NCBI GenBank assembly: GCA_054600435.1
Contig: BAAIJX010000009.1
Location: 558,001-622,000 of the forward strand
Origin: Neophaeotheca triangularis
Lineage: Eukaryota
Direction of reading: 5' to 3'
DNA: 64,000 bases
Below, piece by piece: positions 1,824-50,336 of this stretch; within the stretch, counting starts at the first letter, position 1; every line of letters begins with the position of its first letter. The position numbers and the translations under genes were made by a program. Below the pieces are notes generated by a model, which was not told the origin of the DNA, searched no databases, and worked only from the letters and a program-made list of their open reading frames with translations.

Positions 1824-2477
1824 AAACTCTCCGCAATAGAAGTGTTGGCGGTGAATGTAGTCTGGAATGTCGGATGATCGAAGCTCTCGAGATCTCAACA
1901 CTTCAGCATTCCATGGACCCAAAATCTGCTAACTGTGCTTCACACTGTGTGCAGCTGAATCTTGTTGCCCACTGGGATTAATGAGACTTGCCCATCGTGT
2001 TTCTCCCGCGAGGACCATTGGATAGCAAGACTCTAGTTCTAGCGCTGGAGCTAGTTCAACAACGTCTTTTGAGTACCCCGGCGGCCTCCACACAATCTAT
2101 AGACCTGACAACTTGTGGGGTGAAATGAGGCAGACATTTCGCCCGTGACATGTCGTCGCGCCCCTATTTCTCGAGTCAAAAACACCGAGAGGCCAAAACC
2201 ACAGCCGCCAACTAGCGCCGTCTATGCTTCGACCAATCATAAGCCCAGCCGAAGCTGCCAGCCACACCCCAGCCCAGCCACGCGCAGCTCTCCTCGACTC
2301 GACTCGCTTCGCTGCCTCGGCGATGGTTTTGGTGTAAAGTACTTGCATTCGCCCAAACACAACTAAAACTACCATTTGCTCCACTCACCTCTTTGCGTGA
2401 CGTTGTTGGTATACTTGCTGTATCTTTGTGGATTAAACAGGCCATAGACAGCTTCCAGAGGGAGGCACGCAGCCATC

Positions 2478-4661
2478 ATGGCCTCGAACCCACGACCCTA
2501 CCCTCGCTCCCATTCCTCAGCGACCTCATCCTCGCGCTCTTCGCACTCGCCCTCTCCCTCGCTCCAAAACCAGATCCAATCCCAAACTCAACCTCAAAGT
2601 GCCGCGTCGAAAAAATTGCAAACCGAGCACCCCCACTTCCCTCCCGCCCAAGCACCCACACCCTCCCCAACGCCCTCCCCCTCCCTCCCACGCTCTCACT
2701 CCCAACTCTCGACCCGCACCACCCACACCCCGAACAATTCCAAAGACCCCGACTGGCACTTTCCCGGCCCCTCCAGCAAATACCATACCCGCGCTCTTTC
2801 TCGGCCGGAGTTATCGACACTGCGGGCGCGGAGTTCGGGGGTTACGAGGCCTGTTGGGCCGAGCTTGGAAAGTGGGAGGCGGGTGCATAGAAGGGCTTTG
2901 ACGGGGTTTGGGGGTGAGAGTGGTGCTGGTGTTGGTGGAGAGGGGAGTAAGAGGGGCAGGTTGGAGGCGCTTGGGAAGAATGGGACGCCAATGACGCCAG
3001 TGGGTAAGGGATTGGGGTTGTCCGGGGTGGAGGATGGGGTGAGGGCTTCGCCTTTTAGTGATTATTTTACTGATGACGGGCGGTCGCCGGGGTTTGGGGA
3101 TGGGAAGGCTGGGGTGCAGAGGTTGTTGGTTAGGTTGAATGAAGTCGGGGCTATGGTTTTGAGACTGGGGGAGGAAGTTCGGGGAGGAGAAGAGGGAGAG
3201 GTGGGGAGGGTGGTGGAGAGGAAGGTTGGCGAGTTGGAGAGGGAGTTGGAGGGGCTTTCGGTGGGTCGTGACGTTAGGGGAGCGGAGGCTGACGGTGTCG
3301 GGGATAGTGGCATTTTCATGCGCGAAGATGAGAGCCCGAGTCAGAGGGCTAGGCGGTCTGCGAAGAGGGCGGATGGCGTTGAGGATGGTTTGCTTTCCAG
3401 CTCGCCTACAAAAGCCACCCGGGATTCGGAGCGCTTGCTCACCACGGCCCGTGATGTTCTCAATCGCGTCACCTTTGCACAGGAAGAGCTAAGGTCTCGT
3501 CACGATGAGCTGCAGCAATTACACGCCACCCACAACATTGAGCTCGAGGATCGCGAACAGGCTATTGAGACGCTTCGAGCGGAGAACGAGCAACTCAAAG
3601 CTGATCTCGGTTTCGGGCGCAGCGAATTGCTCTTCCTGAAACTCCAGCTCGAGGGCTTGAAAGTGGAAGTCGGAGAGGTGGGCGCACTGAGCGGCAAAGC
3701 GAGAGCGCAGTTGGAAAAGGGGTTCAAATTCTTGCGTGAAGATTGGAAAGCAGTGGAAGGCCGTTTCAAGCAACGCGCGCACGAAGATGGCGCGGAAAAC
3801 CTCGACGACAGCACCGATAACGACGGCGCCGCTACCGACTGGCGCGTCTCCCTCCACCGCGAGCATTCTGGCAGAGTGCAGCGTGTGTCCGCCATTCGAC
3901 GAGTTGCTCCGGCCGCCGAGACGGAAGCCGTCGACACCGCAGTACCTGACCACGACAACCACACCCAACGCCCCGCTCTCCCAACCCGCGACTCCAGTTG
4001 CCAAACCCACGCTTTCCTCTTCCGCGCCAAGTCGAGCCTAAACGCCAACTCCAACTCCAACTCCATCGAGCCGCACGCCGACAAAGCACCCGCCAGCCCC
4101 GTTTTGGCGGCGAAGAGGAGTCCTGCTAATACGGACGTGCAGACTGAGTCTGGTAATTTGGCTTTGCGATCTCGAAGCGGTGATGGTGAGGAGGGGCCGG
4201 AAGTAAGGGATCAAGATGGCGGCGCGGGGGCGAAGGTCGTGCTGCAGCCGGAGGTTGGAGAGGATCTGGGTGCTTGGGTTACTGCTGATTTTGATGAGGG
4301 GGAGGAGTTGGGGGTAGGTGTTGCTGCTGCTAAGCGTCGAACTGAAGAGGATGAGCACGAGGAGGAAGAAGAAGATGAAGAAGAAGATGAAGAAGATGAA
4401 GAAGAAGATGATGATAATAATGATGATGATGAGAAGGAGGAGGAGGAGGATGATGCCGAGCAAAAGGCCGAGGACGAAGAAGAAACCAGAACAGCGATTG
4501 CCGCCGCGCGCGATCAAGACGAGCCTACCATCTCCTCCCAACCCGTAACAGACCCTGTCCACGAGAAGACCAAGACCAAGACCAAGACCGCGTGGCAGGA
4601 ACTCTGGGATAGTCTAGGCAACCTCGCTGGTATGGGGGAGGGCGAGGAGGATTCGGAGTAA
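2478..4661 (+). CDS. Hypothetical protein (727 aa) with coiled-coil core and acidic C-terminal tract
   Basis: Long single ORF with heptad-like segments (LQQLHATHNIELEDREQAIETLRAENEQL), a D/E-rich run at ~4340-4480 and a C-terminal KTAWQELWDSL motif. No recognisable catalytic domain. Confidence 0.75.
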   Translation: MASNPRPYPRSHSSATSSSRSSHSPSPSLQNQIQSQTQPQSAASKKLQTEHPHFPPAQAPTPSPTPSPSLPRSHSQLSTRTTHTPNNSKDPDWHFPGPSSKYHTRALSRPELSTLRARSSGVTRPVGPSLESGRRVHRRALTGFGGESGAGVGGEGSKRGRLEALGKNGTPMTPVGKGLGLSGVEDGVRASPFSDYFTDDGRSPGFGDGKAGVQRLLVRLNEVGAMVLRLGEEVRGGEEGEVGRVVERKVGELERELEGLSVGRDVRGAEADGVGDSGIFMREDESPSQRARRSAKRADGVEDGLLSSSPTKATRDSERLLTTARDVLNRVTFAQEELRSRHDELQQLHATHNIELEDREQAIETLRAENEQLKADLGFGRSELLFLKLQLEGLKVEVGEVGALSGKARAQLEKGFKFLREDWKAVEGRFKQRAHEDGAENLDDSTDNDGAATDWRVSLHREHSGRVQRVSAIRRVAPAAETEAVDTAVPDHDNHTQRPALPTRDSSCQTHAFLFRAKSSLNANSNSNSIEPHADKAPASPVLAAKRSPANTDVQTESGNLALRSRSGDGEEGPEVRDQDGGAGAKVVLQPEVGEDLGAWVTADFDEGEELGVGVAAAKRRTEEDEHEEEEEDEEEDEEDEEEDDDNNDDDEKEEEEDDAEQKAEDEEETRTAIAAARDQDEPTISSQPVTDPVHEKTKTKTKTAWQELWDSLGNLAGMGEGEEDSE

Positions 4662-21139: not shown

Positions 21140-22914
21140 TCACGACCATCCCGTTCCAGAGCCTTGCGTAGAGTACCCGGCATCGACCTCGTACGCGCCC
21201 TGGTAGGGATCATTAGACAACCAAGAGGTCTGCGAGCCGAAGCCAGCGTTCCCTTCGTCACCGGAGCCGTACCCAAAACCCGTCGACGAGGTCTGGCTCA
21301 TGGATGTCGTCGAGGAGAGGCCATTGGGGGCGCCGTTGAGGTCGTCATCGTCGAGTTCGGGGAAGAGCTCGCGCATGACGTCGTTGTTGGGAGCGGAGCT
21401 GGGGCCAACGGAGCGCGCGGTGGGTCTACTATTGCCGCTGCTGTTGTTGCTGCCAGGCCGTTTGGGGGTATTTTGAGATTGGCGGAGGCGGTGGGGGATT
21501 TGCGCGGATGGCGGGAGGGTTGGCATGTTCCAGATGTCGTCTAGATTTGGCATACCGAGATCTTGGTCGAATGTGTTGGTTTTCGAGTTGTTGTAGGGGG
21601 CAAAGCTGGTTGTTGAGGGAGGGTCACTGGTTTGGGAGAGGAAGCCGAGGTTGGCGTTGCCGAAGAAGGATGGTGGCAAGCTATGGCGGTTGTTGTTGGC
21701 TTCCGAATTGGAGAGGTAGGGCTCGTTCATGTTGAAACCGCTGACGTCTTCTTGTATGCTAGGCATGTGCCATGTCCCGTAGGATTCGTCGATGGGCGGT
21801 GTTTCGTCTACCTCTGAATTGCCGGAAGATGCTGCGGTGAGCGCAGGCTGTACCAGAAGATTCGTCGCATCTTGAGATGTGGGCCAGACATCGAAAGGGT
21901 TCGTGTTGGGCATGTTTGTTTGATCGCCGGACCCCAACGCAGACCAAGGGTCGTACTGACTGTCGGCGGTCCCAGAGGCAGGCCCAAAGGTGTTGTCGGC
22001 CGTGTAAGAAAACGATGGGCATCCGAAAGCTGTTGCAAAGTCGGTTGTGCCTTGCATGTTGTTCGAGAAGTCCAACTCTGACTGCGGTAGAGAACCAGAC
22101 ATCAATCCAAAGGGCCAGGCACTGTTTGTATCCAGAGGAGGCAGCTTTGGGGAGGTCTGCTCTGACTTTGATTTACGCCTTCCCATGTCGAAAGGCATGC
22201 TTAGAGCTGCCTTATCACCACTGATGCCGCAAGTGCTGCTTTGATTCAAGCCCATGTCGTCAATGGACCTACGGTTCGACATATTCTCAGTAGTGTGCGC
22301 TCTCGGCATCGGCATCTTGTACGGCATCGCGCCTTCGTGCGCTGCATTGTTCTTCCTGTGTACCGGCTTGTGATGGCCGTTGGAAAATACCGTGATGTGG
22401 CCATCGGACTTGGTCGATTCCAGTCGAGGCTTGCTCACAGCCGGTTTGCCATGCGGTAAGGATCCATCATTATCAGGCTCCTTTTTGATAGCGCAGCTGC
22501 ATTTCCCGCCGTGGTGACAACAGCACCCTTGCTCTTCAGCGACCGAAGCCAGATGATCTTTGTCCTTCTCCTCCGGGGGATCCGAGGGCAATCCTTGCTT
22601 GATCCTCTCTTCTGCTTCCCTCAAATGAATGCACTTTTCCTTTGGATGGTGAGGCTTGTCGGCCTCGCCGCAGTCGCATTTAACATGGGCAGACCTCTTC
22701 TTGCGCTCGATGCGGCAATGCTGACACTGCGTGACGGGACGACCTTTCTTGGGTACGAGGACAAGCTCTCGGTCTGGTTCAAGCGTAAGCGGATGATAAG
22801 GCATGCCAAAGCCTTTCAAGGGAACAATTTACCTGTGTGGTTGCAACCGCTCACGCGGTGCCCCTTCAGGCACGAATGGCATGCCCACTTCGTTCCATCT
22901 TCGCGAAGCACCAT
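21140..22914 (-). CDS. Copper-fist (Ace1/Mac1/Haa1-family) transcription factor
   Basis: ATG at 22914 and intron 22774-22832. N-terminus KWACHSCLKGHRVSGCNHTDRELVLVPKKGRPVTQCQHCR (copper-fist), a Cys/His cluster GCCCHHGGKCSC and an S/N/P-rich activation-like tail. Confidence 0.92.
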
Positions 22915-38317: not shown

Positions 38318-40447
38318 TCACAAGTCCAAAAGCTCCTCAGCAAAAGCATCCAATTCAACAATTCGGAATCTCTCCCCCCACTTCCGTCTAAACGCCTCAT
38401 TCTTATACATGCCGTTAACATTCCCGCTCCACGTGACTAACTCGACCGACCAGCCCTTGATCAGAGCGCGCTCGGCCATGGCCATGAAACCATCCGAATA
38501 CTCAGCCTGCGCAGCATCGCCCGTTGCCAGAACCATCGTCGCGGGTTTCTCCACGTCGATGATGCTCTGCAGCATTTGCAAGTGCAGCATTTCGTCCACG
38601 CCTTGCTCGACCCATTTGGCCTTGGCGTATTGCGGACCTGGCGTGGCGGTGGCTGTGGCGGGGGTCGTTTCTGGCCCGCTGCCGTAGCCACCACCACTGC
38701 CGGAGGAGGGAGTAGGATATTTCGATTTCGCGAAATTCTTGCGAGCGGTCCGGCGCAATTGCTCTTGCTCGTTGAACCATATTTGGCGCGGGGTAAGCTC
38801 TTTGGCTTTCCAGACTTTGTCGAGAAGATGGCATTGGTAGCCGACTTCTTCGGCGCGGTCAAACGCCGTGGTGCGGGGGAGGGAGCCGGCCAGGTAGCGT
38901 TTCGCGACTGGGCGACGGCGTTCCATAAGCAAGGCGAGCGCGTCGAAGGAGATGTCCGCCGGCTCGACGTGCACCCATGCGGGGATGTTACGTAGCTTTT
39001 TCAGCTGCTCGGTGAAGCCTATGAAGATATTACTGGCGTCGACGAAGACGTGAATGCCTTCGGGGCTGTTGTTGTGGGTTGTTAGGTTCATGGGGTTGAA
39101 GAGGTATTTCTTGTCGGCGGGGAAGTGTTCAACTAGGTCCATCAGCAGCTGTTGATGTCTGTCTTCTGCCAGCCGGGCGCGCTGAGGTCCGATCTTCGGC
39201 CTCGGAGTCCGTGAAGGCGTTGCCTGGTAGTTGGACTGGCTCTGAGGTTGCTGAGGCGTGATCTGCTGGGTTGGCTGTGGAGTGCAAGGCGTGTGCGGGG
39301 CCTGCTGCTTCACTCGCTGAACCGAAGATGGCATTGCTGGTGCGGGTGAAACTTGTTTCTCGATCAATCTCTCGGGCGGAGGTGATTGCTGATCTCTCTC
39401 AAGAATCTCGGACTGCTGGGCGATGATGTCGTGCAAAGACTCTGAAGAAGTCGCCTGTTGGCGAACCTGTTTAGAAGGAAAAGATGCCGTCGAATTAGAT
39501 TGCGGCTGAACAGTGAAAGGAAGCAAATTCGGTTTGGAGGTAGCGACAGCTTTAACGTTACCACGTTGTTTCAGAGCCTGATGCGTTGGTGTAGGTGTGG
39601 AAGGAAGCTCGCGGTGTGCGGTGCTCTGAACAGGTTGTGGCGATGTGTTTTGACTTGCCAGAGCGTCTTTCTGAAGCCGCGTGGCATGGTTAACTGCTGC
39701 AACGGCCTTGGAGATGGAATTCATATCATTATGCTCCACCGTTCGCGGGTTAAGTCGTTTGGCGGAGACGTTGGCCTGCGGTGTTACCTGCCTCTTAGGT
39801 TCAGGCGTAGCTGGCCTGTTCTCGATGACCTTGGACTTGACCTCCGGCACAGCATCTTTCGCCTCGGCAGGTTCAAGAGCCTTGCGCTCTTTTCTTCGCT
39901 GCTTCTTGCGTTGCGTCTTGGTCAACTTTTTAGTGACCCCTTGCGAAGTGTCGTTGGCGGTATCATCGGCAGTGAGATCATCGCCGCTGTCACCTGAGGA
40001 GAACGGGGCTCGGTGGCTGTCATGTGGCGAGTCACTAGCACCTTGTTTTGTATCATATTCTACCTCGGCCCCGGTCGTGGCCAGCGTGGGACCAGTGTAT
40101 AGGGCCCCCAAAGACTGTGGCTGTACCCGTGGCGATGGGGAAGGCTGGGGCGTTCCTAGAAAACTGTAAAGGCGCGAGAAGTCCCCCAAGCCTGTGGGCG
40201 CCCTATCAGACTTGGCACCAAGGCTGGCGCTCAGATCTCGGAAGACGCTGTCGCGATCGGCATCTGGAATGACCTTGGGTGTTGAGGAGACTTTACTCGT
40301 TGCTGAGAAAACGTCATCAAGACGAGACGTGTGGTAAGTGAGGTCCCATGGCTTGCCACGGGATTGTGGTGCAGGCGATAGACTGGAGAGCTCCTGATTG
40401 AAGGAGGTGAAATCCCACAGCCGGTCCTGGGATCGCTGCGATGTCAT
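38318..40447 (-). CDS. NYN/LabA-DUF88 PIN-fold ribonuclease-like protein with long disordered N-terminus
   Basis: C-terminal GIHVFVDASNIFIG...EQGVDEMLHL...MVLATGD...GWSVELVTW has the acidic PIN/NYN motif pattern. There is a basic NLS-like tract (QRKKQRRKERK). Confidence 0.85.
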   Translation of the reverse strand: MTSQRSQDRLWDFTSFNQELSSLSPAPQSRGKPWDLTYHTSRLDDVFSATSKVSSTPKVIPDADRDSVFRDLSASLGAKSDRAPTGLGDFSRLYSFLGTPQPSPSPRVQPQSLGALYTGPTLATTGAEVEYDTKQGASDSPHDSHRAPFSSGDSGDDLTADDTANDTSQGVTKKLTKTQRKKQRRKERKALEPAEAKDAVPEVKSKVIENRPATPEPKRQVTPQANVSAKRLNPRTVEHNDMNSISKAVAAVNHATRLQKDALASQNTSPQPVQSTAHRELPSTPTPTHQALKQRGNVKAVATSKPNLLPFTVQPQSNSTASFPSKQVRQQATSSESLHDIIAQQSEILERDQQSPPPERLIEKQVSPAPAMPSSVQRVKQQAPHTPCTPQPTQQITPQQPQSQSNYQATPSRTPRPKIGPQRARLAEDRHQQLLMDLVEHFPADKKYLFNPMNLTTHNNSPEGIHVFVDASNIFIGFTEQLKKLRNIPAWVHVEPADISFDALALLMERRRPVAKRYLAGSLPRTTAFDRAEEVGYQCHLLDKVWKAKELTPRQIWFNEQEQLRRTARKNFAKSKYPTPSSGSGGGYGSGPETTPATATATPGPQYAKAKWVEQGVDEMLHLQMLQSIIDVEKPATMVLATGDAAQAEYSDGFMAMAERALIKGWSVELVTWSGNVNGMYKNEAFRRKWGERFRIVELDAFAEELLDL

Positions 40448-41217
40448 GCAAGGCTAATAGCGTGCTGTCTTGCACGAGCGAAGAGTCGCGGTCAAGAGTG
40501 GATGAGGTGCGGAGTGGCGACAGCAAAAGGCCAGAGGAGCTTTGCTCGGTGGCGTAGGTGTTATCCGAAGGCGGTGTCGGCGTCACAATGGATGATATAA
40601 ATGTAGCCAGCGAGCAGCCCTACAGGCATTGGCGGGGTCGAAGTCTTTGTTGTTGTTGTCGTACCAGAAGAGGAGAGAAGATGAACTTGAAGGGAGTAGT
40701 CGTGGTATTGGAAGGTTAAGGGTAGGTAAGGTAGCTAAGGTATTGAGGCGGCGTCGGCTGATGGAGTCATCAAATCAACGACAGACAGGGTCCAGCGTCC
40801 AGCGGAGCTCGGGCGATTTTCGCCACCCACGACGACCGACGACCACAAGCAGCATGCAGCGACTCGGCGACTCCTCCGCCTACTAGTAGTACCTCCTACC
40901 TCCTGTCTCTCCTATGTTCCTTTGCACAGGGATGAGATACCGTCCATCTTTCGCATGCGATATTCGATATAGATATAATCCGACACCGCACACGCATGTC
41001 GGCACGCCGCAGACGCTTTCCAACAACGGTGAGTTGAGGAGGCAACTGAGTCACTGCTTTTCTTTCCCTACTTGAAGCTGCGCCGTTTACCCCCTACAAT
41101 CAAGCAAGAAGACCTCCCCACGTACTTTCGTCGCATCTTTCCTTCTTCTTCTTCTTCTCCCTACCATTCTAGTCAACACTTCAAGAACCTCCTCTTTCTC
41201 CTTTGTCTCCCTCCAAA

Positions 41218-44200
41218 ATGGTACATCGGGCCATGCAATCGCAGCACTCTCGCCTCGACATGACCTACATAGCCATGGCAAGCAATATCGACAACAGCAC
41301 CCTCCGTAACAGCCACCCCAAAGACATTGCAGTCTACTTGGGCACTACCTTGGCCAGCACAGAAACCAAGACCGTTTCCGAGCATCTCATCGCTTCTGTC
41401 GCTTGCGGTGCCATCTCTCCTCGTGTCTTTCTCATATGGCTCTCCGTACGCAAGGACCCTCTCGCCCTGGCACAGGCACTGCAACAGGATGTGTCAATCG
41501 CTGCCCGTAGCCATGCTATGCGCATCTTCGCAAAACGTTTACGTGGCGCCAAATTCACCGAGACATGGCAAGCTGTAGGAGGCACTGAAGGAATGTTGGA
41601 GCTCTTTGCCAAATTGTCACTCGCCGATGTGCGTTACTTTTGCAAAAAAATGGGAGGTTGCTATTCAGCTCCAAACCCCGAGGATACGCTATGGCAAGTC
41701 ATGACAGAATTCACTTCGTCACTGGCGTACAAGTACTTTCCTGGAGCCAAACATCAACATCGAGACAGAAGACCGCTTCTCAAATACTACGCCCACTTGC
41801 TACCAGCCTGTACCGCAAGCTTTCTGAAAGAGTGGATTGATCGCTTTGGATTTCCCAGTCAGGCTTCCAAGAAACTGCTGCTGTCGCACTGGCTGTATTT
41901 TCAACTCTCTTTCCACGGACTTTCGCACCATGATGCGAACGAGAAAATTCCCCCCTCGGACGGCGCCAAAATCCTGGACCCACTGCTCCATTCCACGCCG
42001 CCTTTGCCAACCGAGAAGCGCTATCTGTCCAAGAGTATGGAGTTTGCCATGGAACGCATCGAGGCCGCCAGCTCCGAGGTCGACGTTGAGGACGAGGAAC
42101 GATCCTCTCGTGTGGTACCACTCGAATTTAAATCTCATTTTGCCGAACCATTACTCCACCGTGCAATTAGACGAAAGGCACCAACAGCGGTGAAGTGCCA
42201 CATGTTGGAGTTTATCATTCGGTATTTGGAAGCAAGACCACATTTTGCAAAGACGTTTGGGTTAAGGAATGATTCCCTGCTCAAAATTACCATCAAGCTC
42301 TGGTCAAGGCGTTCTGAGGTTTACGGCGAGTTGCTTGTCAGGCTTCTGCAAATCTTTCAAAAAGATGATATTGACGGGCTTTCTCGAACCTTCAGCGTTC
42401 TGGAGCTTGCAAGACCAGCGCTTCGTTACGAGCTTCTGAGCATGATCTGCAGACATGTCAAGTTTCTCGACTTGGACATCGAGAACGATGCAGAGGTTAA
42501 GCAATCAAAAGCAGAGATCTGGGATGCTTCAATTTTTGAGTCTCTTCCCCCAGAGCAGGCTTTGCCTTTGTTGAGACGCTTCATGCGAATCCGGCCTCAG
42601 TGCGACTTCCTCGGCTCGTCTTCAGATTCGACTGATTTGTATCTCAGGGTCAGCAGAGGCGAAGAAGGCCATAAGGACCTTTCCAAGCAGAAGATCAAAA
42701 AGCGCAAAGACACAGCCGTCAAGGCTCGCGATCAAAAGTTACGCGCCGTCGGGGCAAAGCAATCGATCCACACAGCCGCAGCTTCGGGGTACCCGGACTT
42801 GTTAGCGGAGACACTGCTCTGGGCCAGAAGGTTCAACCGAGATTCCTGGACGTTGCAAGGGATCTATTCTCATTCCATTATCAGTCACGACAGCGTTGTT
42901 GAAGTGCTTTGCGGTATTCCGGAGAGATGCGACCCAGAGGCCACGCCCCAGAGTATCAGTGAGGCCATTGTCGCGGGCAATGAGACGATCAAATTGTTGT
43001 ACGAAACCATGCGTTTGTGCCAATCAGAGCCTTCCTTTGCCCTGGAACATTGGTACGGGGTTCAAGAACTACTCGGGACTACCATTCACAAGCGTGAGCT
43101 GAGGATATCGAAGATGCAGGCGAGTCTGGCTCTCACCGATGAAGAGACATATGATATCGTGTGGAGACCGACACTGGAGACGTGGATGGAGCTCGAGGCG
43201 ATGGTCTTGAGAGTAGAGAATGAGAAGCTGTATCAAGCCGTCCCACAGGGCATTGTCGACATTCTAAATGTCGGCCCTTGCATACCCGCCACTCTCCGCT
43301 TCATCGACAAAGTAGCTCGCTGCCGTGATGAGCTTTGGAGGTCTTACCGGAGATCCCTGTACCCGGCTGTCGTCAGTCTCAATGAACCTTGGCCGAAGGG
43401 CCTCCCGTTGCAGGCGCTTCATCCGTTTTGCCATCAAGGGAAACGTTATGATATGGATATGATTGCAACACCTTACTGTCTCGAGCAAGCAACGCGGGTC
43501 GTTTTCATGCCCCGGGAAACGGCAGCGGCCTCATTGCCCACAGACGAGGAGACAAGAAAGGCAATCGGTTGCGTAGTTGATGATTTCAAGATGGCTCTGA
43601 AGGTCTACTGTACCGGCCTGGACGACAAACCCACGGCTCGATTGCGGAGGACGCAGGCGGCATGGGATCATGCGTTGTCGCAGCTGACGGGCGATCGAAT
43701 GCACCGACATGAGGCCGTACACTTTTGGAAAAACGCATTCAAAGAGGCCAATGTCGACATCAAGAATATCGATCTTTACTTGCCAAAAAGGCCTCGACCG
43801 GCGTTGCCCACCATAGAGGATGCCGACGAGCGTATCGAGTGGAACCCGGAACCTGATCATCCTCTCCAATTGCCAACTCGTAATCTCGAAACTGTCACGA
43901 TCGATTGCTTTCTAGAGAGAGGGCGCACGGATGACTTGACGCCATTGGCCGAACACGATTTCGATGACAGTCCGATGATAACGACCGCGGGTGCGCCACG
44001 TAAGAGCTTCTGGGAACCCGAACCAAAGGATGGCCCCGCCGTTTGCGAAGCCTTGATAGCCAGCGGCATGCTCTATCTTGCGTCCAAGAAAGCACAAGGC
44101 TCAAGTCTCTTCTCGAAGCCGTTCCCTTCACAGGATGAGGTCAGATTTCCTGCCATGTTTCTAGACGACGCCTTTCTACAGCAACGCGACTCTGAAGAGA

Positions 44201-46230
44201 AACGGGCCTTTCGCTATCTGAAAGAGAGGCTAGTCGATGTCCCTCCAAAGCTGCTGGCAGAGCTAGTCCAGGCGCTTTTTCAACCCCTCTCCGACAAGGG
44301 CACAGCCGTATCATCTGATCACACGCCATTCTTGTTGCTCAAGCTGTTAGCAACATCCGATCGTCCAGAAATGGCATGCAAATTCATCCAACACTTGGTG
44401 GTCGACCGACCGAAGGATAGCTCCTGGCATCGGCAATTCCTAAACTCGGGCTTCTTCACAAAACTGTCTGCCGACCAGGCTCAGGAGTTCTTGCACGGCA
44501 TTGTGGACGTGTTACAGGACCGTCTCAAGGCGTCTGCTGATCGAGACAAGGCGATGAAGGGGGGTGAAATTGCTTCGACATCTAGCGAGCCTGTTGTTAA
44601 AACCACCACGGTTAAGATGCTGGCACAGATTATGCGGCACGCCGACTTCTTCGACCAGCACGCTAATGTCAGCTTGCTTGGGGGACTCTTTGTTCACAGT
44701 AGCCACATCGATATTCAAGTTGCTGTTGCAGAGAGTCTGTTGAGCACGCTGGCTAAGACCGATGATGCCGAGCTGATGGAGAGGATCTTTGTCGAGTTGG
44801 AGCAACATGCGGTGCCCGTTGCTGGCCGACTGGACGAGCGGGTTGAGCTCACGGAGCAAGATTGGCAAGACGCAGAGACTAGCATGCAATTACCAGACAT
44901 TGGCGAGACATATTGCGAACGCGGAATGGATGAACGGCCTATGATGCTCCTCCTCAGAAAAGCGAAATTGCAAGAACAGGACATGCAACAGAAATACGAC
45001 CGTCTAATAGTCCCCGCAATCGAGGCTTCCACGCACGACATGATGCGTTACCTGGCTATTTTCCTACGCAAACAGGCACCGCATGTCTCCATCGATTCCC
45101 TCCCCAGGACCCCCACGCGCCCTACCTTCCTGCCTGAGATCATCCAGTCAGGCATCGCTTATCTACCCTCTCACATACTAAACACCCACGCCACCCTTCT
45201 CAACATCTACCTCTCCCCACCACCCGCTCTAGCAAGCCTCACCGCGCAGATAAAAAACAACCACGGACTCAAAACCTCTCCCGGCGGCGCAACCTGGCTG
45301 CTCTTCTACAACACCCTGGACAACCCAACCTTGATGACCAACGACCCCTTCCATCTGAACAAATACCTCACCCACCCCTTCACCTCCAAACGCCACGACA
45401 ACAACGGCATAACCCACACCCAAATCGCAACCCACGCCTCGAACCAACTAAACCTCCTCCCAACCCTCCCAGGCAACACCCTCCCCCTCTGGACCACCTG
45501 GCTCAACACCCTCGCCCGCCGCCCCGGCCGCCCTGGATCCGAGCAAACCCTCTACTCAACCCACATCACGCCGCTCCTCCAAAAAACCATCCAAGAAGTC
45601 ACAACTCTCAGCACCTCGCCAAGCTACCACCAAACCCCGTCCCAAGACCGCGTCCCCCTCGTCCTCCCGGACCTCTTCAAAGCCCGCCTCTGGCTGCTCT
45701 CCTGGCCGGAATCCCCTCTAGAACCGGGCTGGGAAGAGCGCTGTCGCGTTTTCGCCGAGGAGATTAGGATCATCTTGGCTGGTTTGCTGGCCGGGAGGTA
45801 TGGGAGGCTTTGGTTGAGACATTTTGCGGCTTTGGTTGAGATGTTGAAGCGGCTCGAGAGTGCTATTTTGCCCGTCGTGGCTGTGGGGGTTGGGGCGCTG
45901 GAGGAGGTGGGAGTGGGTGGTGACGAAATGCTCAAGCTGGTCGAGAGAGAAGTTTTGCCGGTTGTGGTTGTTGGTGCGCGTACGGTTGCGGGTGCGGGTG
46001 AGGATGCGGGCTTGGGTTCGGGAAGCGTGAGTGGTGGTGGTGGAGGCGGGGAAGATTTGAATTTGACGGTTCTGAGAGTTGAGCTTGCTGCGGAGATGTT
46101 GGCGGGAGCGAAGTGGTTGAATTGGAGTTTGGAGGCGAGGTGCAAGGTTTGGGGAATGCAGGCGAGTTGGCGTCAGAGTCGGGTTGCGGAGATTAGGTTG
46201 CTGGGGTTTGAGAAAAGGGGGTCACCATGA
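41218..46230 (+). CDS. Large uncharacterised, probably alpha-helical protein (~1,670 aa)
   Basis: A 5-kb stop-free, intronless ORF with Leu-rich helical composition. The start ATG is uncertain (41218, 41233 or 41261). No catalytic motif recognised. Confidence 0.85.
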   Translation: MVHRAMQSQHSRLDMTYIAMASNIDNSTLRNSHPKDIAVYLGTTLASTETKTVSEHLIASVACGAISPRVFLIWLSVRKDPLALAQALQQDVSIAARSHAMRIFAKRLRGAKFTETWQAVGGTEGMLELFAKLSLADVRYFCKKMGGCYSAPNPEDTLWQVMTEFTSSLAYKYFPGAKHQHRDRRPLLKYYAHLLPACTASFLKEWIDRFGFPSQASKKLLLSHWLYFQLSFHGLSHHDANEKIPPSDGAKILDPLLHSTPPLPTEKRYLSKSMEFAMERIEAASSEVDVEDEERSSRVVPLEFKSHFAEPLLHRAIRRKAPTAVKCHMLEFIIRYLEARPHFAKTFGLRNDSLLKITIKLWSRRSEVYGELLVRLLQIFQKDDIDGLSRTFSVLELARPALRYELLSMICRHVKFLDLDIENDAEVKQSKAEIWDASIFESLPPEQALPLLRRFMRIRPQCDFLGSSSDSTDLYLRVSRGEEGHKDLSKQKIKKRKDTAVKARDQKLRAVGAKQSIHTAAASGYPDLLAETLLWARRFNRDSWTLQGIYSHSIISHDSVVEVLCGIPERCDPEATPQSISEAIVAGNETIKLLYETMRLCQSEPSFALEHWYGVQELLGTTIHKRELRISKMQASLALTDEETYDIVWRPTLETWMELEAMVLRVENEKLYQAVPQGIVDILNVGPCIPATLRFIDKVARCRDELWRSYRRSLYPAVVSLNEPWPKGLPLQALHPFCHQGKRYDMDMIATPYCLEQATRVVFMPRETAAASLPTDEETRKAIGCVVDDFKMALKVYCTGLDDKPTARLRRTQAAWDHALSQLTGDRMHRHEAVHFWKNAFKEANVDIKNIDLYLPKRPRPALPTIEDADERIEWNPEPDHPLQLPTRNLETVTIDCFLERGRTDDLTPLAEHDFDDSPMITTAGAPRKSFWEPEPKDGPAVCEALIASGMLYLASKKAQGSSLFSKPFPSQDEVRFPAMFLDDAFLQQRDSEEKRAFRYLKERLVDVPPKLLAELVQALFQPLSDKGTAVSSDHTPFLLLKLLATSDRPEMACKFIQHLVVDRPKDSSWHRQFLNSGFFTKLSADQAQEFLHGIVDVLQDRLKASADRDKAMKGGEIASTSSEPVVKTTTVKMLAQIMRHADFFDQHANVSLLGGLFVHSSHIDIQVAVAESLLSTLAKTDDAELMERIFVELEQHAVPVAGRLDERVELTEQDWQDAETSMQLPDIGETYCERGMDERPMMLLLRKAKLQEQDMQQKYDRLIVPAIEASTHDMMRYLAIFLRKQAPHVSIDSLPRTPTRPTFLPEIIQSGIAYLPSHILNTHATLLNIYLSPPPALASLTAQIKNNHGLKTSPGGATWLLFYNTLDNPTLMTNDPFHLNKYLTHPFTSKRHDNNGITHTQIATHASNQLNLLPTLPGNTLPLWTTWLNTLARRPGRPGSEQTLYSTHITPLLQKTIQEVTTLSTSPSYHQTPSQDRVPLVLPDLFKARLWLLSWPESPLEPGWEERCRVFAEEIRIILAGLLAGRYGRLWLRHFAALVEMLKRLESAILPVVAVGVGALEEVGVGGDEMLKLVEREVLPVVVVGARTVAGAGEDAGLGSGSVSGGGGGGEDLNLTVLRVELAAEMLAGAKWLNWSLEARCKVWGMQASWRQSRVAEIRLLGFEKRGSP

Positions 46231-46933
46231 TGGGATTGATGTGCCGTGTAATTTGCAAAAAGGTGAGCCCGCAAGAGGGGTTGGGAGGGTTCTTGTTGGA
46301 AATGGAAGCGGGATTTATTGAAGAGAGAAGATGATTGACAGATGTCAAAGACGAGCCTACCTAATACTCATTCAGTGCTGTTCGCTGTCTCGAACCCCAT
46401 TGTATGCGGAATGATGAGGTGTGACAAGGCAATTTATGCGACAGTTCTGGAGGAGTTGTGGTATTTGGTATCGAGGTCGGTGTCGGGGTGATGGTATCCA
46501 TTGTATTGATAGACTGGGTAGTTCTACTGCACATGCGTTCGGGTCACTAGTTTCATCTTTTGAAGGGAGAAGAAAAAAAAAAAAAAAAAGCGAAGCCTTG
46601 TCCTCTCCTTTGCTCGAATAGTTGGATCATTCATTTCAATAAACTTTAGCGGACGAGTTTCCAAGTCTCCAAGTCTCCAATATAAGAGAGGAATGACAGG
46701 AAGTTTTCGGTTTCGGTGAGCTCTGGATAGGTTCGAGCCTCGATAGTCTCAAGGCGCTGGAATCGATAGGTCTCAATATCAGGTGCGCATGAACGTCAGA
46801 AACACCAACAACAACGATAACACCAGCCCCCTCATCTACGATAATCGAACCGCCCCCGAACCACACGCACCACAAAACCAACATCACCCAAGCCCGTTAC
46901 CCCTATTCCCATCCCTCGCGCTCGTCGTGCCAC

Positions 46934-48989
46934 CTACCTCACCTCCCCCCCAACGTCAAAGCTCTCATCAAAAACCGGACTCCCCACCCTCCCCATAGCC
47001 TTAGCAGCACCCCCACAACAATCCCCCTCCTCCCCGTCCCACAATTCCTGGAATTTAATACTCCCATCACTCGTAGCACAAACAACGCCCCTGCCAAACG
47101 CGAGCCCGAAAAGCGCCCTCTCCTCCCCTGGCCACGCAATCCTAACCAAGGTCTCGCATCTCGGCCACGAGAACACCGCAACGCGGAAACTGTGGTCTGG
47201 CTGCGGGAAGCCGAACGTCGCGGCCAGAGCCCTGCGACGGCAGGAGGGGGGTGACCACAGGATGCTGGTGACTTGGGCCAGGCAGTCGATGGTTGAGATA
47301 GGCGAGCCGCTGTCGGTGTGGTAGACGTGGATGCAGCGGTCGTTGCTGCCGCCGCCCGCGGCGAGAAGCGAGGGCTGCCACGGGGCGAAGGCTAGGGCTT
47401 TGCAAGCCGCGCGCAGCTCGAAAGTGTGTTGGGCTGCTAGGTCGGTGAAGTCGGTTACCGTTTCGATGGACATAGGAAGAGTGGCGTTGTTGGTTGTGGT
47501 GAAGGAATTTGTGCCGTTGGTGTTTGCTTGGTCGGAGCTTCCGCTGGTGGAGGTTGCAACGTTGGTGTTGTCGCTCATGCGGCGTAGCCGGCGGACATCG
47601 AGAGCAGGCTGGGCGATTTGGTAGGTGGAAAAGAGTTGGATCTTGTTGTCGTTGCCGCCACTGGCGAAGTGGCCGCCCGTGATTGTCCATGCCAGACCGC
47701 AGAGTTGTTGGCTGTGACACTTGATTCGTGCGAGGAGTGTGAGACTGCCATTCCAATCGTAAAGATCGCGGTCGCTTGGCGAGGGCCACTGTATGCAATA
47801 GAAGTATACTGTACCCTCTTCGTCCCCAACTATCAAGTCTTTGGTTTCTGCCTTTTGCGTTGGATCGCGGATGGATGGTCTGCTGACTGAGTTTGGACTG
47901 AATGCTAGGCACGAGATTGGACTTTGTAATTGGGTGTTCAGGCGGGTCGATGTCTCTTGGGGTGACCAGATAGAGAGCCTGCCATCAGAACGGCCGATGG
48001 CGAGGATGGCTTGGTCGTCGTTGGTCGCAGAGAATGAGAGCGAGGTTATGTGCGCGATGTCACCGGGAGGGGCGGGGAGGCATTGCTGCAAGTCCGCCTG
48101 CTGTGGCATGGTGCGGGGATCCGACTAGAGATATACCTGCGCTCCTAGACCTACAGCGATGCAGCCGGCGACTTTTGAGTAAGCCAGCAGGGAGCAGTAG
48201 TAGTCGTCGCGCAGACCAGACGCCTCCAGTACACGATACGGAACAGTCGGAATTGGCCTTGGGGCACGGTTGGTGTAAGACTGGACTTTGGATAATGTCT
48301 TAGCTGTGGTGTCAGATTGACTGGTGTGAGCTCAACACACCTGGTGATAGATCTGGCATCCATTTCCCCCTCCTGTATATGTACTTCCGACCAAAGCTGT
48401 CCACCGGCGCGTGTTCAGCCAGCGGTTTAGGCTTCTTGACTGGTGACAGTAGTTGCATCGACGCAGCGAGCCGACGCCAGTGTCTACTCCTCTGCTCTTG
48501 TCTTGCTGCATCTTGTCTACTTGCTTCATGTCCGAGAAAAGTGGACGGGTCGGGTGGGTACTCGTTTAATCCAAGAAAGGTCGCATAGTGGTGCTCAGCT
48601 GTCGAACCGCTTGTGGTGAAGCCTCCACGGCCATCAGAAATCGCTGGCACGACATCCGTCACCGCGGTACCACCTACCAGCCACACTGTCCCGGCGCTTG
48701 CTTGACGTGTTGGGGCTTCGACGATGCTGGGGTACGCCGGCAGAGTGGAGGAGACAGGAGCGCGATCACCTAAACGCTCTTCTCGACGTATGCTCGGTAT
48801 ATTCGCTTGAGAGAAATGTGAGGTTTCTAGGTATGTTTCCAATGCATTGCAGTCGCCTCCAAAGTCAAAGATGTTATCGAGATGCTGGGGATTCTGCATT
48901 GATTGACGTCCGGACGGAGGCTTCTGCGGGGAGCGAAGGGGGCGAGGAAGGCGGGCACGAGACGCTGGTCCAGGGTGGTGGTGAAGCAT
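46934..48989 (-). CDS. AMA1: Ama1/Cdc20-family WD40 APC/C activator with one in-frame TAG (48125-48127)
   Basis: Short intron 48304-48340, then PTVPYRVLEASGLRDDYYCSLLAYS...IAVGLGAQVYL*SD, HSQQLCGLAW, FASGGNDN, AACKALAFAPWQPSLLAAGGGSNDRCIH and QVTSILWS, ending in an IR-tail-like EVR. The start codon is uncertain. Confidence 0.85.
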
Positions 48990-49286
48990 GTTGGGCCAGA
49001 CAAAGCAACAGATACGATGCCGCTGTATTAATGGTTGCCACGCCCGTGGCTCGCGAGACTGTTAGGATGAGACAGCGGACTGTAAAGAATCGAGATGTAG
49101 AAGTTGGACCACAACGGAGATTGGAAAGACTGACGCGTCGGAGCCGAGAAGCGGATTCAGGCAGGTAGACGTTTTGCCCTTTCCTTCGATTTCATGGGCA
49201 ATTCCACCAGTTAAAGCTTATGCGGGTAGTACCTGCTCGCTTTGAGACTACTTCGACCTCTCGACGACCGATCTCGCTTGGTCGCT

Positions 49287-50336
49287 TCAGAAGTTGCTGG
49301 GAAAATCCATATCAACTACCCATGCCGCGTTTATGGGCTTATACTTGACATCCATGATAGCGGCGTTAACAAGCAGTGTTTCTTCTCCCCTTTTCAAAGA
49401 TTTACCAGCGTCTTCTGAAACATTCGCAAACGCAGCGCGTTCCTTCTTTACAGCATCAAGGCCTCCGTGAGACGAGGAGGCTCTTGGGCTTTCGTCTACA
49501 ACGCTCGAGACCCAGCCACCGGGCGCTCCCACGTCGACACTGCCGGCGTTACCAGAGATCTGGTCTTGTGGAGCCCAGCCTACCTTACGTGCTCCCCATC
49601 CCTCGTGAATGTGACCGAAACAATGTAGCAAAGGTCGCGATCGCGCCAGCGCATTGAGGAGATGCTTGCATCCAGCGTCCACACCACTGTCAGTTCCATC
49701 CATAATCTGCCAAGGCGGACCATGAGTCATCATTACGTCGATTGGACGCTCTGATGAACTGAAAGCAGGTACGGGCTTGACTGCAATATTCTTGGCGCCA
49801 GGTAGAGAGCTCTCCGGTGGGTTAAAACGGTCTTCGTCATGCTCATAGGGAAAGCCCCAATCGAGGAACTCGGGCGTGTAGGGATTGGCGTAGACTTTGA
49901 CGGAAGCACCATTAGGCAAATCAACGAGATGAACACCTTCATCGAGGAAAGTGATGCCTTCGCTTTCCGCTCTACCACCGGGTGAGGTCCAAAGATCCCG
50001 CATGCGCTGCCACTTTACTACAACTTCGTCCTCGGAGCTTTGCTCACGGTGCGACAGAAGGAAGTACTTGTCTAGTGACAAGTCATGGTTGCCGGCAATT
50101 ACCAGCTTCACTGGTGCATCGATTTCTCTGAGCATGTCGAGACATTGGTGATACTCTCCCTCTTCACCCGTGTGAGTAAGATCGCCACAGTGAATCAGGA
50201 GGTCTGCAGACGGGAGTGGCGATTCGAAAGGAGGCGTTGGATAGGTGCTGAGTCCGCCTTCCCTCTTTGAAAGAGCGGCACAGTGGGTGTCGGAGATGAT
50301 GAGAACGCGGGTCTTTACCGTAGCGGTCTTCGCCAT
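49287..50336 (-). CDS. Calcineurin-like metallophosphoesterase (MPPED-type)
   Basis: Motifs IISDTH, IHCGDLT, IAGNHD, THGPP and HCFGHIHE. Likely ATG at 50336. Confidence 0.92.
   Translation of the reverse strand: MAKTATVKTRVLIISDTHCAALSKREGGLSTYPTPPFESPLPSADLLIHCGDLTHTGEEGEYHQCLDMLREIDAPVKLVIAGNHDLSLDKYFLLSHREQSSEDEVVVKWQRMRDLWTSPGGRAESEGITFLDEGVHLVDLPNGASVKVYANPYTPEFLDWGFPYEHDEDRFNPPESSLPGAKNIAVKPVPAFSSSERPIDVMMTHGPPWQIMDGTDSGVDAGCKHLLNALARSRPLLHCFGHIHEGWGARKVGWAPQDQISGNAGSVDVGAPGGWVSSVVDESPRASSSHGGLDAVKKERAAFANVSEDAGKSLKRGEETLLVNAAIMDVKYKPINAAWVVDMDFPSNF

Follow-up and report, generated by a model that had tools for sequence, protein, structure and literature searches.

An in-frame TAG at the invariant propeller tryptophan of an AMA1-type gene in a Dothideomycete: a candidate for restorative A-to-I editing

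Is a meiosis gene whose reading frame is broken by a single stop codon dead, or is the codon repaired in the mRNA? This question is raised by a gene on the minus strand of the window, by which we mean the whole stretch of 64,000 nucleotides that was analysed. The gene is of the AMA1 type, and AMA1 is a co-activator of the anaphase-promoting complex that acts at meiosis and in the ascospore stage. From the sequence and the list of open reading frames, its frame reads ...CIAVGLGAQVYL-TAG-SDPRTMPQQ..., with the TAG at positions 48127 (T), 48126 (A) and 48125 (G). A scan of the window yields 58 pairs of open reading frames which are split by a single stop; homology was examined for the AMA1 pair only. 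A preliminary description of the locus had proposed that the stop is repaired by A-to-I editing.

The gene and its interrupted codon

All features are on the minus strand. Exon 1 (48341..48989) encodes the N-terminal region with a conserved TVWLVGG...GRGG...TSG motif and offers two candidate starts, ATG 48989-48987 (MLHHH) and ATG 48899-48897 (MQNPQ). Its frame is joined to the frame of exon 2 by a putative intron of 37 nt (48304..48340, GTGTGT...CTGAC...CACAG). The portion of exon 2 that lies 5' of the TAG (48128..48303, ...PYRVLEASGLRDDYYCSLLAYSKVAGCIAVGLGAQVYL) encodes three propeller strands as predicted in an AlphaFold model, and the TAG itself (48125..48127) is residue 69 of the read-through exon 2. 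Past the TAG the frame stays open for 396 codons (46937..48124), which encode most of a CDC20/Fizzy-type WD40 propeller and end with ...GGEVR. The terminal stop (46934..46936) is also a TAG. Thus, TAG is not reassigned genome-wide.

The preliminary description had counted about 400 codons up to an IR-like tail and had seen no other lesion. The length agrees with ours and the frame past the TAG is indeed undamaged. The tail, however, is VR and not IR, and upstream of the TAG the 37-nt GT..AG intron (48340-48304) is required. The window protein and a relative, P0003, both end with ...EVR and lack the C-terminal IR with which the homologs shown end. The change from Ile to Val is a conservative one.

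The protein matches the Pfam family PF24807 (E = 1.4e-50) with 172.7 bits, which is under the Pfam gathering score of 200, and in the PDB it matches Slp1 (5e-34), CDC20 (7e-29) and CDH1/FZR1 (9e-27). In the AlphaFold model (pTM 0.74) the propeller strands have pLDDT values of 85-96; a low-complexity insert occupies residues 240-300, with pLDDT below 50 at 256-289. A seven-bladed WD40 domain of the CDC20/Fizzy type is found by Pfam, PDB and AlphaFold alike. The identity to the F. solani ortholog is 37% (E = 4e-91), and the homolog matches include Bcama1 of Botrytis and the Fusarium AMA1 ortholog FVEG_11389. These sequence matches support the view that the gene encodes an AMA1-type APC/C co-activator and is probably the AMA1 ortholog.

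In the PDB search the counterpart of the TAG is the Trp that closes VYVW in S. pombe Slp1 (4aez) and VYLW in human CDC20 (4ggc). Both the VYLW motif which the preliminary description had ascribed to the Cdc20 family at this place and its assignment of the TAG to a conserved Trp of an AMA1-like activator agree with this. The Trp is invariant across an alignment of 24 rows (23 homologs and the window read through). Among 80 metagenome loci the site is TGG in 77, and the other three, which are without the RDD[YF][YF] motif, are unclassified; a TAG at the VYLW Trp occurs in none of the 77 metagenome relatives covering the site. W stands at the site in 118 of 150 cluster representatives, 31 do not cover it and one, from Elsinoe, is gapped. 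A regular expression for VYLW fits 77 of 120 hits and leaves the remainder unclassified, for which reason the counts rest on the two sets above. The change from TGG to TAG at this propeller Trp blocks full-length translation from the unedited mRNA. In the 38 residues 5' of the TAG all 15 family-invariant positions located there are kept, and the AlphaFold model has three strands in this part (48-52, 57-62 and 65-70, pLDDT about 86).

The 5' part of the gene cannot clearly be called intact and the N-terminus is doubtful. The relatives checked have no intron at the place of the 37-nt segment, which may be an intron peculiar to this lineage or else an insertion that shifts the frame. The segment carries a GTGTGT donor, a CTGAC branch site and a CAG end, and when exactly these 37 nt are taken out the homologous ...SP[A/T/S]K... 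junction reappears. The other intron resolved in the window, in trpE (241-295), has 55 nt. An upstream intron of 88 nt with an alternative donor was rejected because it would remove the homologous W.P.D.SP motif. APC/C co-activators have an N-terminal C-box motif of the type DR[FY]xP. In tblastn with nine homologs no canonical C-box was found: in the frame with TVWLVGG, ETYLET stands opposite the (D/E)RYVRG of the relatives, and a weak alternative, DQRLVP, is in another frame (E > 1).

Host lineage and selection past the stop

In a quick search for the trpE tree the window falls into a clade of 24 rows (SH-aLRT 100) with Cladosporium, Hortaea, Zymoseptoria and others, and the Sordariomycetes are placed elsewhere. 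The organism therefore belongs to the Dothideomycetes, Capnodiales in the broad sense, and not to the Sordariomycetes, as had been suspected from its proteins. It is thus outside the lineages with demonstrated editing (Sordariomycetes, Pyronema). The trpE branch of the host is long, 0.51 versus a median of 0.2, and the fast evolution of AMA1 is therefore partly a lineage effect.

The likely source contig, X1, has a word depth of 128 and is identical to the window. A contig from a second sample, X2, is about 1% diverged (depth 110) and spans 47854-49500; among its differences listed, 15 of 16, there is none at 48125-48127. With neither X1 nor X2 listing a difference at the codon, the TAG is not an assembly artefact. 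A run from an air metagenome, X3, covers 46500-47561 only and stops short of the TAG.

Past the TAG (46937-48124) the listed differences to X2 number 11, of which 8 are synonymous and 3 non-synonymous, and two of the latter three fall in the low-complexity insert. With 279.7 synonymous and 908.3 non-synonymous sites, dN/dS between window and X2 is about 0.12. The binomial probability of at least 8 synonymous changes among 11 is 0.00076 when the expectation is taken from the numbers of sites and 0.0043 when it is set to 0.30, in what is a small test of 11 substitutions from one pair of genotypes with the same organism label and from the same study. The frame past the TAG is under purifying selection, as seen at shallow depth between two genotypes. 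5' of the TAG the changes in X2 are 3 synonymous and 5 non-synonymous. The listed differences nearest to the TAG are 9 nt downstream and 102 nt upstream, which makes a recent transfer of the TAG between haplotypes unlikely. A TAG that is common to a second genotype and is followed by a selected frame argues against a dead, private knockout. In the comparison with relatives, which the preliminary description had proposed as a check, X2 has no listed difference at the TAG and dN/dS is low; the 77 metagenome relatives have TGG.

The preliminary description had also offered a RIP-like knockout by CpA>TpA as an alternative. This finds no support, as the gene has no RIP signature: its indices are 0.71 and 1.19, and those of the window 0.73 and 1.18.

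Editing and its rivals

We consider restorative A-to-I editing of the AMA1 UAG the best single reading of the locus and hold it tentatively, by analogy with the AMA1 gene of Fusarium graminearum (FgAMA1). During sexual development the A of the UAG (A48126 of the minus strand, T48126 of the plus strand) would be deaminated to inosine. The UIG would then be read as Trp, and the full-length WD40 protein would be made at the sexual stage only. This reading supposes that the UAG is recoded at all, that A-to-I editing is the route, and that the lineage has a sexual stage and an editing enzyme.

The candidate base is in the context C-U-A-G-U-C-G. Judged by the rules for F. graminearum, as given in PMC9600606 and applied here to a Dothideomycete host, the bases at -2 (C), -1, +1 and +4 (G) are preferred, +2 is neutral and the C at +3 is depleted. 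The U at -1 and the G at +1 are dictated by the TAG codon itself. The hairpin in which ATCT and GGAT close a CUAGUC loop, drawn by eye in the preliminary description, is the minimum-free-energy structure at 31, 61 and 101 nt. This predicted hairpin (48119..48132) has a stem of four base pairs, one of them G-U (AUCU 48132-48129, GGAU 48122-48119), and a loop of 6 nt (48128-48123) whose third base is the target A. The folds are, however, no stabler than shuffled sequence (z = -0.15, +0.82 and -0.95). The hairpin is therefore not counted as evidence.

Editing is favoured by the real and shared TAG, the selection past it, the open frame of P0003, the incompleteness of a product from Met75, the FgAMA1 precedent, the sequence context, the gene models of Elsinoe and the missing RIP signature. 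It is weakened by the Dothideomycete host and the published limits of editing, by the weak hairpin and the small selection test, and further by the fast evolution of the gene, its doubtful N-terminus, the rarity of the TAG and a site that differs from the one in Fusarium.

The main rival is a young null allele, that is an early pseudogene in a lineage where sex is rare or lost, with TGG-to-TAG as the first or an early lesion. We regard it as rather unlikely. The open frame and the low dN/dS would then merely reflect too little time and a small sample. Of 152 strongly conserved positions, 25 differ from the family in the window protein, versus 0-13 in 23 other Dothideomycete orthologs; it is the most divergent of the 24, which speaks for this rival. 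The missing canonical C-box, the VR tail, the 3 synonymous and 5 non-synonymous changes that precede the TAG, the lack of the TAG in the 77 metagenome relatives and the fact that editing is not known in Dothideomycetes all speak for decay as well, and the 37-nt segment could be a second, frameshifting lesion. Neutrality, however, fits poorly with 8 synonymous versus 3 non-synonymous changes past the TAG (P 0.0008-0.004), and the differences 9 nt and 102 nt from the codon speak against a null allele that was recently passed between haplotypes. P0003, which is 77% identical and known as protein only, has the same intact frame of 368 codons from the same Met to ...GGEVR. It shares most of the departures of the window from family-conserved residues, as judged partly by reading the alignment, and these unusual residues have therefore been kept since before the 23% divergence of the two proteins. 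The splice signals of the 37-nt segment and the junction restored by its removal suggest an intron rather than a lesion, and the long trpE branch takes some weight from the fast evolution of AMA1.

Alternatively, the gene could be functional without editing, through low-level read-through of the UAG or through a shorter selected protein from Met75 (ATG 48109-48107). We hold this to be improbable. It would explain the selection past the TAG together with the looser N-terminus and the lost C-box, and Met75 (48107..48109), the first ATG past the TAG, is where the ORF models of the window (P0002) and of P0003 both begin. This shared start is uninformative on the codon of P0003 because an ORF caller would start there anyway: in the window the stretch of the frame from the preceding stop to the TAG contains neither ATG nor GTG nor TTG. 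As the three strands 48-52, 57-62 and 65-70, which are family-invariant and still kept in the window, are encoded 5' of the TAG, a product from Met75 is predicted to miss part of the propeller. As to read-through, the base after the stop is U, and U after UAG is not known to be a read-through context. Near-cognate read-through of UAG would insert Gln, Tyr or Lys, here at an invariant Trp.

The TAG might also be spliced out as an in-frame mini-intron of 30, 36 or 54 nt, which would give an mRNA without the stop and a protein shorter by 10-18 residues; this is quite improbable. By eye, three GT..AG spans lie around the TAG (48101..48154): 30 nt (48154-48125, GTAGGT..CTCTAG), 36 nt (48136-48101) and 54 nt (48154-48101). 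All three are multiples of 3, and the GTAGGT donor of the 30- and 54-nt spans fits the fungal donor consensus. Moreover, an intron of 37 nt seems to be spliced elsewhere in the gene, a corrected stop within an alternatively spliced intron is described for FgBUD14 in PMC11156358, and in the Elsinoe annotations the skip is of exactly this 30-nt type, over the same ten codons. No branch site of the CTRAY or yTnAy type was, however, found by eye in any of the three spans, the 30- and 36-nt spans fall below the length of either intron resolved in the window (37 and 55 nt), and excision would take away the invariant VGLG..VYLW strands. A skip in annotations is also how gene predictors deal with any in-frame stop. 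A sequencing or assembly error with TGG as the true codon, for which we found no supporting point, is extremely improbable in view of two assemblies with word depths of 128 and 110 and no listed difference at the codon.

Restorative editing could also concern a second lineage. In Elsinoe batatas and E. ampelina (91% identical) the gene models lack precisely VGLGxxVYLW, a run of ten codons with the Trp as the last. For a GT..AG intron to end at this place the codon itself must end in AG, and the skip therefore hints at a TAG; the models of five Fusarium species in which the edited TAG is documented contain a skip of this kind as well. Elsinoe (Myriangiales) is thus, judged from its gene models, a possible second lineage with a stop at the VYLW Trp. 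Elsinoe has a described sexual state.

In a wider reading, which is possible though on balance doubtful, some Dothideomycetes would recode UAG to Trp in the sexual stage, and AMA1 would have been captured and stop-gated repeatedly and at different Trp codons. Such recoding would most simply be A-to-I editing that arose independently for a third time, or that goes back further than now assumed. The sites of capture would be the VYLW Trp in this lineage and apparently in Elsinoe, and the Trp about 25 codons further on in Fusarium.

Which fungal classes beyond the Sordariomycetes and one Pezizomycete edit their mRNA is an open question according to PMC11156358, and a selected TAG at an invariant Trp in a Dothideomycete would be a cheap and specific probe for the range of editing. 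If editing is true, the model of an origin in the Sordariomycete ancestor needs revising, AMA1 is a case of convergent stop-gating of one developmental regulator, and annotation pipelines should stop inventing 30-nt introns at such codons. If there is no editing, the locus shows a meiosis gene that has begun to decay in a lineage which is putatively asexual.

Comparison with known systems

The window protein has the CDC20/Fizzy-type WD40 propeller of Ama1 (S. cerevisiae), Cdc20, Cdh1 and Slp1. Unlike these proteins it has a VR tail, no canonical C-box, a long low-complexity insert and a frame interrupted by TAG.

With editing by Tad2-Tad3-Ame1 the locus shares the UAG target, the U at -1 and a predicted location in a hairpin loop, which is the known preference. 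The machinery, however, is reported to be of Sordariomycete-ancestor origin: the interaction of Tad3 with Ame1 is reported to originate in this ancestor, and the Ame1 of Sclerotinia neither complements an ame1 mutant nor binds Tad3. According to PMC11156358, no A-to-I editing was detected in either Aspergillus nidulans or Botrytis cinerea. In the literature on sexual A-to-I editing consulted here, the Dothideomycetes are named in comparisons only and no mRNA editing is reported for them. The supplementary tables of PMC10776026 contain no entries for Elsinoe, Dothideomycetes, Zymoseptoria or Cladosporium.

For the Pezizomycete Pyronema confluens the literature describes A-to-I editing at the sexual stage, with an origin that is presumed to be independent. 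This sets a precedent for editing outside the Sordariomycetes, in a class that differs from that of our host. We know of no link between editing in Pyronema confluens and AMA1. FgBUD14 is relevant as a case where splicing, and not editing alone, offers a way past a UAG. Unlike there, the spans around our TAG are without branch sites and their excision would delete invariant strands.

FgAMA1 is PSC33 (FGRRES_10728, FG3G26160), a 'premature stop corrected' pseudogene of F. graminearum, with its site given as chr3:5461540 or 5461017 and FVEG_11389 as its listed ortholog. As the preliminary description had stated, its UAG is edited to UGG; this occurs in perithecia at a level of 60-69% (60-63% in one source and 69% in another). 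The gene is required for ascospore formation, and stop correction has been shown for it and 70 other F. graminearum genes. Six independent origins of TAG at the FgAMA1 site within the Sordariomycetes are given in PMC10776026.

The two cases differ in their host, a Sordariomycete there and a Dothideomycete here, and editing is demonstrated for FgAMA1 and only proposed for the window. They also differ in the Trp concerned, which in Fusarium is about 25 codons downstream as inferred from protein models and not from DNA. The Trp of xW-LTSVAFSS, whose counterpart in the window is His94, is missing from the models of F. graminearum, F. sambucinum, F. longipes, F. verticillioides and F. oxysporum. 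This Trp is kept in F. solani, F. duplospermum, F. zealandicum, F. piperis, Fusarium sp. NRRL 66182, Neonectria and Trichoderma. At the TAG site of the window the F. graminearum model retains LYAW. The trait of the PSC genes, a UAG at an ancestral TGG in an otherwise intact gene, is found in the window as well, with the intactness of the 5' part being uncertain. Thus, in both FgAMA1 and the window a gene of the AMA1 family carries a TAG at an ancestral Trp early in the WD40 domain, and the remainder of the domain is intact.

Gene, stop codon and host

On the minus strand the frame of this AMA1-type gene reads ...KVAGCIAVGLGAQVYL-TAG-SDPRTMPQQ... with the TAG at 48127-48125. It then stays open over 396 codons up to a terminal TAG (46936-46934), in line with the roughly 400 codons announced in the preliminary description. 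The IR-like tail described there is VR (protein end ...GGEVR). Since the gene's own terminal stop is TAG, this codon is not reassigned. The normal stop (46934-46936, minus strand) also has U at -1 and G at +1 and a weak local fold; were this stop likewise subject to editing, the product would be 34 residues longer and no longer end in the VR tail.

The read-through exon 2 product (465 residues) matches the CDC20/Fizzy WD40 domain PF24807 with E = 1.4e-50 and 172.7 bits, a score below the Pfam cut-off of 200, and solved Slp1, CDC20 and CDH1 chains with E = 5e-34 to 9e-27. In the alignments to these chains the TAG lies opposite the Trp of VYVW/VYLW. This Trp is invariant in a 24-row alignment; among the 150 best cluster representatives, 118 carry it (31 have no coverage there, one is gapped). 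Of 80 metagenome loci that encode relatives, 77 have TGG as the codon; the other three, in which no RDD[YF][YF] motif was found, are unclassified. Thus the TAG at a conserved Trp is real and specific. We found no canonical C-box in the N-terminal region of the window's protein.

The host lies outside the Sordariomycetes, as had been suspected. The trpE product (285-1823) has its best named relatives at 71-76% identity in Elasticomyces, Meristemomyces, Teratosphaeriaceae, Baudoinia, Zymoseptoria, Hortaea and Cladosporium. A quick maximum-likelihood trpE tree of 52 hand-picked rows, with class labels from match names and lineages checked, groups the window with such taxa in a clade of 24 rows (SH-aLRT 100) and places the four Sordariomycete rows elsewhere. 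The best AMA1 matches, aside from the 77% identical relative P0003, are Dothideomycetes at about 48% identity. By these sequences the host is a Dothideomycete of the broadly defined Capnodiales, and its trpE branch is long (0.51 versus a median of 0.2). Several metagenome runs (X3-X14; air, concrete, urban and marine) contain small shares of the window's words, which is not informative on habitat. Four other long open frames, at 41173-46230 (plus, 1685 aa), 38318-40453 (minus, 711 aa), 21140-22828 (minus, 562 aa) and 2448-4661 (plus, 737 aa), gave nothing in a Pfam search at E <= 1e-5.

Selection and the upstream segment

Four DNA runs were compared over 46500-49500, of which X15 gave no match. 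X1, probably the source, is identical to the window over the compared part. X2 is another sample with the same organism label, about 1% diverged; one 5,676-nt full-depth contig crosses 47854-49500 and none of its listed differences falls at 48125-48127, with a small doubt on the identity of the TAG since 15 of 16 differences are listed. X3 is identical over 46500-47561, a span outside which the TAG lies. We classed the X2 differences codon by codon against the window. After the TAG (46937-48124) there are eight synonymous and three non-synonymous changes on 279.7 and 908.3 sites, a dN/dS of about 0.12 and thus well below 1; the probability of at least 8 of 11 synonymous changes is 0.00076 from the site-based expectation and 0.0043 assuming that 30% of neutral changes are synonymous. 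The three synonymous and five non-synonymous changes before the TAG fall largely in linker and N-terminal stretches of low conservation. In the 3′ flank (46592-46921) X2 has two half-depth haplotypes, with 3 versus 17 and 0 versus 7 differences, unlike its coding sequence, a single full-depth contig; this may reflect a diploid, a heterokaryon or a mixed sample.

P0003 (368 aa, protein only) has the same open frame, Met start and GGEVR end as the window. As ATG, GTG and TTG are all absent from the window's frame ahead of the TAG, an ORF caller would begin at Met75 (48109-48107) regardless, and the start of P0003 is therefore uninformative on its own codon.

The claim of no other lesion holds for the frame after the TAG, but upstream the frame is interrupted by 37 nt. 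The exon 1 frame meets that of exon 2 only with 48340-48304 taken out, which brings back the ...W.P.D.SP[A/T/S]K... junction of the homologs. Among the first 40 loci of relatives that were examined, 8 have this motif unbroken and in frame with RDDYY. The segment (48304-48340, minus strand), a candidate intron with GTGTGT, a CTGAC branch site and CAG, could be a short intron specific to the lineage or else an insertion that shifts the frame. In the former case it may be an ultra-short intron, recently gained; this order of fungi is known to have introner-like elements. The sole other intron resolved in the window is that of trpE (241-295, plus strand, 55 nt; GTCCGT...TACTAAT...CAG), after codon 52 or so of a gene whose exon 1 runs from near position 86.

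How the stop might be overcome

Both the gene and the stop are real, and the downstream sequence still looks selected. A stop-gated gene fits this better than a dead one, and we tentatively favor a mechanism in which restorative editing would recode the UAG to Trp, a reading which we hold with less than even confidence. If true, this would be remarkable in a class in which editing is unknown. Of six preferences described for F. graminearum, the context C-U-A-G-U-C-G matches four, and its C at +3 is disfavored. The target A does sit in a predicted 6-nt hairpin loop as proposed, but the structure folds no better than shuffles.

A young null allele or pseudogene is less likely, yet a serious rival. 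The N-terminal irregularities and the fast protein evolution keep it in play: the window protein deviates at 25 of 152 strongly conserved positions, 23 other orthologs at 0-13, and most of the deviations are common to P0003 in an alignment read by eye. Against it stands the selected look of the post-TAG sequence. The RIP-like knockout offered in the preliminary description finds no backing, as the AMA1 gene carries no RIP signature. Read-through of the stop, or a product started at Met75, appears unlikely. An AlphaFold model from the 24-row alignment (mean pLDDT 74.8, pTM 0.74) has predicted strands at 48-52, 57-62 and 65-70, all upstream of Met75, and a Met75 product would thus miss part of the propeller. 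Splicing of the TAG out of the mRNA is improbable, and an assembly error at the codon is scarcely credible given the identity of X1 and the absence of a listed X2 difference there. The X2 comparison also speaks against a TAG private to one genome.

Relatives and known editing systems

The one gapped representative is Elsinoe batatas, and its cluster mate E. ampelina (91% identical) is gapped alike. Both models (P0259 and P0388) miss exactly VGLGxxVYLW, ten codons with this invariant Trp as the last; the corresponding codons in the window read GTAGGT...CTCTAG (48154-48125). A predicted GT..AG intron can stop right after the codon only if the codon itself has AG as its last two bases, and TGG does not. 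With the Fusarium models as a positive control for predictors skipping an in-frame stop, the shared gap is suggestive of a conserved in-frame TAG in Elsinoe, masked in annotation by a 30-nt pseudo-intron; alternatively, the gap is a real 30-nt deletion. The Sphaceloma murrayae model (P0316) is without the entire N-terminal part. In the Cryomyces antarcticus AMA1 model (P0313) unrelated residues replace the expected ...VLDAPALRDDYY...VYLW segment, as if translated out of frame; either the genome has a frameshift there or the gene model is wrong.

F. graminearum AMA1 (FGRRES_10728, FG3G26160, PSC33) belongs, as stated in the preliminary description, to the edited genes: it is one of 71 in which a premature UAG becomes UGG by editing in perithecia, here at a level of 60-63% or 69%. 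PMC10776026 gives six independent TAG origins at this site within Sordariomycetes and mentions single species of other classes with TAGs, where A-to-I editing is 'yet to be determined'. The Tad2-Tad3 and Ame1 machinery reportedly arose in the Sordariomycete ancestor and independently in Pyronema (PMC11087585), and according to PMC11156358 editing was not found in A. nidulans or B. cinerea. In papers retrieved by a literature search on sexual-stage A-to-I RNA editing and Dothideomycetes, the class is named only for comparison.

We aligned annotated Fusarium AMA1 proteins to locate the PSC33 residue (three further Fusarium rows were unclassed by regex). The Trp of xW-LTSVAFSS is left out, in varying ways, by the models of F. 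graminearum, F. sambucinum, F. longipes, F. verticillioides (whose FVEG_11389 is listed as the F. graminearum AMA1 ortholog) and F. oxysporum, and kept in F. solani, F. duplospermum, F. zealandicum, F. piperis, Fusarium sp. NRRL 66182, Neonectria and Trichoderma. Public models of five Fusarium species (P0492, P0473, P0489, P0482, P0497) bridge the documented edited stop by differing artificial gaps, so these databases hold no correct full-length FgAma1-type protein for those species. From these gaps, the PSC33 site would be the Trp that precedes LTSVAFSS, and the F. graminearum model retains LYAW at the window's TAG site. Judged from annotated gene models, the Fusarium TAG most likely lies opposite His94 of the window, some 25 codons further downstream than the window's own TAG. 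Both stops lie in AMA1-type genes, but the Fusarium stop apparently occupies another Trp codon.
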